Shown here: one piece after another, positions 32,510-33,782 of the stretch
Numbering within the stretch: the first letter of the stretch is position 1
How the letters are laid out: every line of letters starts with the position of its first letter
Notes under the pieces: generated by a model
The model's database searches: none
Seen by the model: only the letters and a program-made list of their open reading frames with translations
What the model was told of the DNA's origin: nothing
Source: Escherichia coli
Lineage (GTDB): Bacteria > Pseudomonadota > Gammaproteobacteria > Enterobacterales > Enterobacteriaceae
Direction: 5' to 3' (one strand)
Assembly (NCBI RefSeq): GCF_013122565.1
Contig: NZ_CP053258.1
DNA: 64,000 nucleotides
Made by a program: the position numbers and the translations under genes

Positions 32510-32525
32510 TTGACCGTTTAGTCCA
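32510..32525. promoter_or_regulatory. Candidate RutR operator
   Basis: TTGACCGTTTAGTCCA resembles the RutR consensus TTGACCAnnTGGTCAA. Lies between rutR and the rutA promoter. Confidence 0.4.
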
Positions 32526-32589
32526 CTTTTTTCCAGATATTTTATATAACCCAACATTAACACATTAATAACATTCACTTTTTAAAAAC

Positions 32590-32605
32590 TGGCATCCGCT
32601 TTGCA
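32590..32605 (+). promoter_or_regulatory. Sigma54 (-24/-12) promoter of rutA
   Basis: TGGCATccgctTTGCA matches TGGCAC-N5-TTGCA with the conserved GG and GC. The rut operon is known to be NtrC/sigma54-dependent. Confidence 0.65.
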
Positions 32606-32633
32606 AACAAGCCATTACGCGGCTGAAAAGGAT

Positions 32634-33782
32634 ATGCAGGATGCAGCGCCCCGTCTGACTTTCACTTTACGAGACGAAGAGAGGTTGATGATGAAAATTG
32701 GCGTATTCGTACCTATTGGCAACAACGGCTGGCTCATTTCGACCCACGCGCCGCAGTACATGCCGACCTTTGAACTGAATAAAGCCATTGTGCAAAAAGC
32801 GGAGCACTACCATTTCGATTTCGCCCTGTCGATGATCAAACTGCGTGGCTTTGGCGGCAAAACTGAGTTCTGGGATCACAACCTTGAGTCGTTCACCTTG
32901 ATGGCGGGTCTGGCAGCCGTCACCTCACGCATTCAGATTTACGCGACAGCTGCCACCTTAACGTTACCTCCGGCAATCGTCGCCCGTATGGCCGCAACCA
33001 TCGACTCCATCTCTGGCGGACGTTTTGGCGTCAACCTCGTGACTGGCTGGCAAAAGCCTGAGTATGAGCAGATGGGTATCTGGCCTGGCGATGACTATTT
33101 CTCCCGTCGTTACGACTATCTCACCGAATATGTTCAGGTGCTGCGCGACCTGTGGGGCACGGGGAAAAGCGATTTTAAAGGCGATTTTTTCACCATGAAT
33201 GATTGTCGCGTCAGTCCGCAACCGAGTGTCCCCATGAAAGTGATCTGCGCCGGGCAAAGCGACGCTGGCATGGCGTTTTCCGCTCAGTATGCCGATTTCA
33301 ACTTCTGTTTCGGCAAAGGCGTAAATACACCCATGGCTTTCGCCCCGACCGCTGCGCGGATGAAACAGGCCGCAGAGCAAACCGGGCGCGACGTTGGCTC
33401 TTATGTGTTGTTTATGGTGATTGCCGATGAAACCGACGATGCCGCTCGCGCCAAATGGGAACACTACAAAGCGGGCGCGGATGAAGAGGCGTTAAGCTGG
33501 CTAACCGAACAAAGTCAGAAAGATACCCGCTCCGGTACTGACACCAACGTCCGTCAGATGGCCGATCCCACTTCGGCGGTAAACATCAATATGGGGACAT
33601 TAGTCGGTTCTTACGCCAGTGTCGCGCGCATGTTAGATGAAGTCGCAAGCGTGCCTGGTGCCGAAGGCGTGCTGTTAACCTTCGATGATTTTCTGTCGGG
33701 AATCGAAACCTTCGGCGAGCGCATTCAACCACTGATGCAGTGCCGCGCCCATCTCCCTGCGCTGACTCAGGAGGTGGCATGA
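32634..33782 (+). CDS. rutA: RutA, FMN-dependent pyrimidine monooxygenase
   Basis: Matches K-12 RutA. The 382-aa form starts at 32634 (MQDAAPRL...). An alternative start at 32691 (MKIGVFVP..., 363 aa) has a better SD (AGAGG). Confidence 0.9.

Follow-up and report, generated by a model that had tools for sequence, protein, structure and literature searches.

Nitrogen-regulated (Ntr) promoters of Escherichia coli, such as glnAp2, glnHp2 and those of glnK, astC and ddpX, combine a σ54 promoter with a TGGCA-N6-TTGCA core and an AT-rich spacer, tandem NtrC-type 17-mers ~100–140 bp upstream, and in vivo occupancy by both σ54 and NtrC. These characteristics are shared by the control region from which rutR and, divergently, the pyrimidine-breakdown (rut) operon of E. 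coli are transcribed; the rut promoter is well studied and controlled by nitrogen and uracil, and we analysed the region in a 64,000 nt stretch of an E. coli genome (contig NZ_CP053258.1 of assembly GCF_013122565.1). This stretch is referred to as the window; all coordinates are window positions, and features are on the forward strand unless stated otherwise. The rutA promoter differs from the other Ntr promoters by the presence of a box for the TetR-family regulator RutR, placed after the putative activator sites and ahead of the promoter. Our analysis strongly favours ATG 32691 as the start codon of rutA, giving a protein of 363 aa instead of the 382 aa annotated in the K-12 reference genome, and describes a conserved non-coding element in the mRNA leader upstream of it.

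Two further systems provide a comparison. The RutR box of the carAB P1 promoter resembles that of rutA in being a 16-bp semi-palindrome of the TTGACCAnnTGGTCAA type with nanomolar affinity for RutR and release by uracil (PMC2952853, PMC2475637). With regard to the start codon, rutA resembles other genes from early annotations based on the longest open reading frame (ORF), as an in-frame upstream ATG was taken in the original K-12 annotation, while the homology-aware Prokaryotic Genome Annotation Pipeline (PGAP), using the TIGR03612 profile, takes the conserved downstream ATG. The rutA gene differs from such cases in that its apparently false extension overlaps the conserved leader element; part of the extension is for that reason conserved as DNA, and a simple test for conservation could be misled by it.

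Between the start codon of rutR and the initial codons of rutA, the window and K-12 MG1655 differ at a few spacer bases only, with zero differences over the σ54 motif, the RutR box and the whole stretch from the promoter to the codons for MMKIGV, and published K-12 experiments on these sites therefore carry over directly. Earlier work on K-12 has characterised the promoter and operator, and PGAP and structural studies already adopt the short start.

Translation start of rutA

The K-12 reference record NC_000913.3 lists rutA (b1012) as 1149 bp and 382 aa, with a start equivalent to ATG 32634 (32634–32636). PGAP annotates 1092 bp and 363 aa with a start equivalent to 32691 in the records of HKUOPY1, MA11, SCZE5, E21845, N780 and NT1N25, and the short start was found in every E. 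coli record examined besides NC_000913.3; the K-12 reference record alone lags on the rutA start. In the window, the 363 aa pyrimidine monooxygenase is encoded by 32691–33782, with coding codons from 32691 to 33779. Structural entries are divided as well, with PDB 5WAN representing the long form, 6SGG the 363 aa protein, and 6SGL, 6TEF and 6TEG a chain of 364 aa. A literature search found no paper discussing the rutA start codon.

The family profiles begin at the downstream ATG. TIGR03612, the RutA equivalog, scored 725.6 bits against a cutoff of 498.3, with profile positions 1–354 of 355 aligned to ORF residues 31–384, where residue 31 is the Met encoded at 32691 and the preceding 30 residues fall outside the profile. 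The alignment with PF00296 (luciferase-like monooxygenase) also places profile position 1 at this Met. We compared the region with RutA loci from other Enterobacterales, of which 80 were retrieved with one genome per species and 79 were usable. The aligned start codon was ATG followed by codons for KIGVF or KVGVF in 79/79 loci, and a GAGG-type 4-mer ended 5–8 nt before this ATG in all of them (6–7 nt in 74). In this alignment, which the initial annotation of the region had proposed as a check, conservation begins at Met 32691, and the codons from 32634 up to 32691 specify no conserved residues.

The sequence preceding the conserved ATG does not behave as coding sequence. An in-frame stop codon was present less than 19 codons upstream of the ATG in 39/79 loci (within 3 codons in 13/79), which rules out an extension of E. 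coli length in these 39. The distance between the σ54 motif and the ATG was 40–45, 54, 64, 72–91 or 101–169 nt; these distances differ by non-multiples of three, thus the frame is not kept, and the 40–45 nt found in the Enterobacter cloacae complex and Buttiauxella leave no space for an N-terminal extension. At the position of ATG 32634, other genera have GTG, TTG or a further triplet that is not a start codon, or the frame there differs. Within E. coli itself, 15 complete genomes have an in-frame CGA to TGA change inside the extension (equivalent to 32670–32672) together with an intact rutA of 363 aa, making the 382 aa form impossible in these strains. This TGA variant of the leader is seen for example in locus L003 (2440–2515) and in L087 (E. 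coli NT1N25), and many of the 15 genomes come from pigs.

The pattern of substitutions changes from non-coding to coding at 32691. In a comparison of the window with its close relative L003, the 57 nt extension contained four nonsynonymous changes, including one stop, and one synonymous change, while the 1089 nt gene contained four nonsynonymous and 78 synonymous codon changes (Fisher p = 1.5e-4 for the contrast).

The ribosome binding sites (RBS) point in the same direction. The Shine-Dalgarno (SD) sequence AGAGAGG at 32678–32684 forms a duplex of -8.6 kcal/mol with the 3′ end of 16S rRNA, at a workable spacing from ATG 32691. The initial annotation had described a good SD there and no obvious one before ATG 32634. 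The only SD-like sequence at the latter is AAGGA, which directly abuts the ATG; its duplex with the anti-SD is -5.4 kcal/mol, and the spacing of zero makes it unusable.

Taken with the PGAP annotation, the profiles, the invariant ATG and RBS in 79 loci, the upstream stops and indels and the substitution pattern uphold the suggestion that the 363 aa product may be the real one, and we strongly favour initiation of RutA at ATG 32691 via AGAGAGG. ATG 32634 would then be in frame by happenstance, within an untranslated leader of ~75 nt. The initial annotation would have been called into question by transcription starting far upstream of 32634 together with conserved residues in the extension; the predicted transcription start, at ~32616, is nearby, and the residues of the extension are unconserved.

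A detail absent from the initial annotation is that two ATG codons are adjacent, at 32688 (32688–32690) and 32691. Initiation at 32688, alone or mixed with 32691, would produce a 364 aa protein (MMKIGV...), and this chain was used for PDB 6SGL, 6TEF and 6TEG. It is a genuine ATG located 3 nt past the ribosome-binding region, and 22/79 loci have either ATG or GTG as the -1 codon. The ATG at this position is not conserved: 57/79 loci have a non-start codon there and just 2/79 have ATG, with GTG, CAC, GCG and others elsewhere; moreover, only 3 nt separate it from the GAGG core, compared with 6 nt for ATG 32691, and both PGAP and the TIGR03612 profile begin at 32691 and not at 32688. We therefore consider use of ATG 32688 improbable. 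Also improbable, slightly more so, is the 382 aa protein from ATG 32634 as the real or a significant second product. In its favour, the window, K-12 and most E. coli have an open frame starting at 32634, and this form is the one annotated in NC_000913.3 and solved as 5WAN; against it, its leader would be just ~18 nt with the sole SD-like sequence abutting the start codon, and the extension is unconserved as protein, frame-shifted or stopped in other genera, interrupted by TGA in the 15 E. coli genomes, dominated by nonsynonymous substitutions and outside the family profiles.

Two observations do speak against initiation at ATG 32691 only. Most E. coli have an open extension, with 4375 genomes ≥99% identical to the window over 32630–32705, and minor use of ATG 32634 or 32688 is therefore possible; and PDB 5WAN demonstrates that the long form can be produced and crystallised.

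The choice of start codon affects residue numbering, the design of expression constructs (compare PDB 5WAN and 6SGG) and the computed leader length. Nineteen residues for which translation almost certainly never takes place are included in the b1012 record of 382 aa and in data sets that go back to it. The value of 18 nt for rutA in the table of Bonocora et al. (PMC4591121), the shortest distance to a start codon listed there, results from this artefact of the K-12 annotation; the corrected leader of ~75 nt instead exceeds most distances in that table, which sets rutA apart from the other Ntr promoters.

Promoter, putative activator sites and RutR operator

The σ54 promoter cTGGCATCCGCTTTGCA is located at 32589–32605, with GG at -25/-24 and GC at -13/-12. 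It contains an exact match, TGGCAT-CCGCT-TTGCA (TGGCATCCGCTTTGCA), at 32590–32605, in which the GG (32591–92) and GC (32603–04) doublets are 10 bp apart. This is the sole exact match in the window, although with 0.37 expected in 64 kb its occurrence alone is not beyond chance. A TGGC[AG][CT]-N5-[TC]TGC[AT] motif was present upstream of rutA in 79/79 loci, and the 17-mer is identical to site OS10 (CTGGCATCCGCTTTGCA), located upstream of rutA in the σ54 chromatin immunoprecipitation sequencing (ChIP-seq) data for K-12 (PMC4591121). A peak for RpoN holoenzyme in the rutA-rutR spacer was also reported by genomic SELEX (gSELEX) (PMC8743547), and a scan of 32300–32800 for σ70 promoters returned zero sites. 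The coordinates given for the -24/-12 element in the initial annotation were right, as was its remark that the first in-frame ATG, 32634, lies very close to the promoter (28 nt after the motif). Placing transcription initiation 19 bp downstream of the motif centre, following Bonocora et al., predicts a start at 32616, which is 18 nt before the ATG annotated in K-12. In our reading, rutA-G are transcribed from the promoter at 32589–32605 with a predicted start near 32616.

Two NtrC-like sites precede the promoter. Site 1, TGCACTCTCATCGCGCA at 32466–32482, is centred at ~-142 from the predicted start, agrees with TGCACCANNNTGGTGCA at 10/14 positions and has an exact TGCAC-N7-GYGCA; site 2, TGCATGTTTTATGTGCA at 32487–32503, is centred at ~-121, agrees at 9/14 positions and is 21 bp from site 1. 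They form the sole tandem pair of NtrC-like matches in the window. In most of the 79 loci a 17-mer resembling site 1 was found ~124 or 133–134 bp upstream of TGGCA, and many also had 17-mers resembling site 2 at -102 to -103 or -111 to -114. ChIP-seq in K-12 detected a strong NtrC peak over the promoter region of the ycdMLKJIHG (rut) operon (PMC4066584). We infer from their sequence and position that the two upstream 17-mers are NtrC sites, and NtrC bound there (32466–32503) would be required for transcription of rutA-G.

Some evidence counts against this arrangement. The two 17-mers match the consensus at just the 10 and 9 of 14 positions given above, and the NtrC ChIP-seq interval, converted by us from U00096.2, corresponds to window 32567–32647, which is the core promoter and not the 17-mers at 32466–32503. 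A comparison of the tables of PMC4591121 and PMC4066584 showed the same offset for glnH and ddpX, and the position of the interval is therefore probably an effect of resolution or looping. Furthermore, the rutA promoter and start have the status 'predicted' in EcoCyc ('P' in the table of PMC4591121), and we did not find a mapped start.

The AT-rich spacer contains a weak match to the IHF consensus, TATTAATGTGTTA at 32558–32570 on the reverse strand, with one mismatch to WATCAANNNNTTR. Matches with one mismatch are found 79 times in the window compared to 67.6 expected, hence at chance level, and an IHF site is for this reason kept merely as a possibility, without statistical support. The CT-rich 'insulator' motifs described for σ54 promoters (bioRxiv 086108) were judged not relevant, since rutA is absent from the main text of that study and the motifs are located upstream of the transcription start.

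The RutR box TTGACCGTTTAGTCCA at 32510–32525 is located between the NtrC-like sites and the promoter, and inside the leader of rutR. It matches the 16-bp consensus TTGACCAnnTGGTCAA at 11/14 positions, including the A at position 4 and the T at position 13, compared to 13/14 for the carA box. A search of the 64 kb allowing up to 3 mismatches found only this one site with 2.5 expected, so that the match alone is not beyond chance. The sequence is the exact reverse complement of TGGACTAAACGGTCAA, the RutR site identified in this spacer of K-12 by chromatin immunoprecipitation on microarrays (ChIP-chip), whose stated position of -114.5 agrees with the distance to the rutR ATG (PMC2475637). The initial annotation had proposed a RutR-operator-like sequence about 65 bp upstream of the promoter, which at 64 bp from the σ54 motif and with this match to the published K-12 site proved accurate. 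The rutA-rutR fragment is bound by RutR with a gel-shift dissociation constant (KD) of ~8.6 nM and released by uracil with an I0.5 of ~9 nM (PMC2952853), and mutation of the box relieved autoregulation of rutR in an operator-constitutive mutant (PMC4325133). A RutR-type box matching 10–13/14 positions was found in 79/79 loci, and most Enterobacteriaceae have a single one, 79–81 bp upstream of TGGCA. In place of this, two tandem boxes 19 bp apart, at ~-89 and ~-70 from TGGCA, are the rule in Erwiniaceae and Yersiniaceae (L034, L036, L042, L060, L074, L079, L080 and others). A further difference from carAB is that RutR acts positively there and represses at rutA (PMC4325133).

Counted from 32616, the control region thus comprises the NtrC-like sites at ~-142 and ~-121, the RutR box at ~-98 and the -24/-12 promoter, with the RutR box starting 6 bp past the proximal NtrC-like site. 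RutR on this single box between the NtrC sites and the promoter would modulate transcription of rutA-G, and judging from the spacing it may do so by hindering assembly or looping of NtrC. The same box is downstream of the rutR start and serves in rutR autoregulation, with RutR released by uracil.

A conserved element in the rutA leader

Between the promoter and the RBS, conserved columns were confined to 32617–32659, at the 5′ end of the predicted transcript; conservation of leader columns was assessed with 62 sequences from three families of Enterobacterales. In the window this element consists of the arms ACGCGGC (32617–32623) and GCCCCGT (32648–32654), GGA at 32630–32632 and 32639–32641, and the core CAGGATG at 32637–32643. 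The core GCAGGA(T/A/C)GC, which includes CAGGA[T/A/C]G, was present in 56/79 leaders with invariant G-C and C-G closing pairs, and a second GGA was located upstream of it in 47 leaders (9–10 nt upstream in 40). The GC-rich arms vary in sequence, being ACGCGGC/GCCCCGT in E. coli and GCGCCGC/GCAGCGC in Erwiniaceae. They can pair at 6/7 positions in 51/57 leaders, with a persistent single mismatch, and in 54/57 the first nucleotide of the 5′ arm falls at +1 to +5 of the predicted transcript. The frame of the element relative to the rutA ATG varies among genera, and the element is therefore not protein-coding. An upstream ORF or leader peptide starting from the ATGCAGGATG motif was likewise rejected, as its ATG is replaced in other genera by GTG, TTG or non-start triplets, TAG, AAG and CCG among them, and the frame relative to rutA varies.

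We found no described function for this element, and a scan of 32350–32800 against Rfam gave no match with E values up to 10. A stable RNA structure in the leader was considered and rejected, since minimum free energies were weaker than those of shuffled sequences, with positive folding z-scores (+1.1 for E. coli, mean +0.76 over 55 sequences). The pairing potential of the stem and the GGA hairpin was 82–88% compared to 1–49% for slid controls; nearly all pairs are invariant and a compensatory change was seen in one pair only (A-U to G-C), leaving the leader stem unproven.

Lineages with short leaders, in which the σ54 motif and the ATG are 40–54 nt apart, lack the element, which is therefore either dispensable or was lost or gained more than once. 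The short-leader loci are L020, L021, L024 and L025 of the Enterobacter cloacae complex, L039–L041, L045, L047 and L052, and the Yersinia loci L074, L076 and L077. A separate variant was seen in E. coli MA11 (L083), which has CAGAATG for CAGGATG (equivalent to 32637–32643), removing the second GGA of the element.

The closest resemblance is to binding sites of CsrA (SELEX consensus RUACARGGAUGU), which include 5′-proximal sites such as those of flhDC. CsrA is bound by the CsrB repeat CAGGA(U/A/C)G, and its known target is a GGA within the loop of a short hairpin (PMC7652899). The rutA leader core contains this repeat, and its GGA could occupy a short loop with GC closing; another GGA precedes it by 9–10 nt, and the transcript carries the element at its 5′ end. 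It differs from CsrA sites in that the rutA RBS is of the GAGG type without GGA and does not overlap the element, which is 40–50 nt further upstream. Of the features that define CsrA-controlled leaders, the GGA and its hairpin are seen at the sequence level only, and the overlap with the RBS or start codon is lacking.

The supplements of a CsrA crosslinking immunoprecipitation sequencing (CLIP-seq) study (PMC5694010) list no peak for rutA, with the presence of rutA mRNA under the conditions of that study not established; they do contain a peak in the K-12 rutR coding region (peak_110, 1074528–1074704), and rutR is flagged there as a CsrA-bound transcription factor. Full-text co-occurrences of CsrA and rutA in the literature appeared unrelated to a CsrA-rutA link. 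Upon nitrogen limitation of E. coli NCM3722, rutA-G are strongly induced and gain both mRNA and translation efficiency according to ribosome profiling (PMC9624429), and the gain in translation efficiency is compatible with control at the level of the leader.

On the basis of these motifs, we tentatively suggest that 32617–32659 may be a regulatory element located 5′-terminally in the mRNA, in which an imperfect GC-rich stem encloses two GGA sequences, and most specifically that it might bind CsrA (RsmA) and thereby set the stability or translation of rut mRNA, although we regard this as doubtful. If functional, the element would bring a post-transcriptional level of control to the rut operon, for which NtrC/σ54 and RutR have so far been the only explanation, and binding of CsrA, if true, would link carbon-storage control to the scavenging of nitrogen from pyrimidines.

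Gene order and conservation of the locus

The 601 bases around the rutA start region were matched in 5421/5426 complete E. coli genomes with 90–99.7% identity, and the features under the match were rutR and rutA. The ORF listing gives the gene order as putA and rutR, followed by rutA, rutB and rutC on the forward strand. The rutR coding sequence, for the TetR-family repressor, is divergent from rutA and is located at 31765–32403 on the reverse strand, as given by the ORF and by mapping onto the window the PGAP annotation for HKUOPY1, a record with 99.7% identity. In the HKUOPY1 annotation, the final base of rutA is also the initial base of rutB, and this overlap of 1 nt (window 33780–33784) suggests translational coupling of rutA and rutB.

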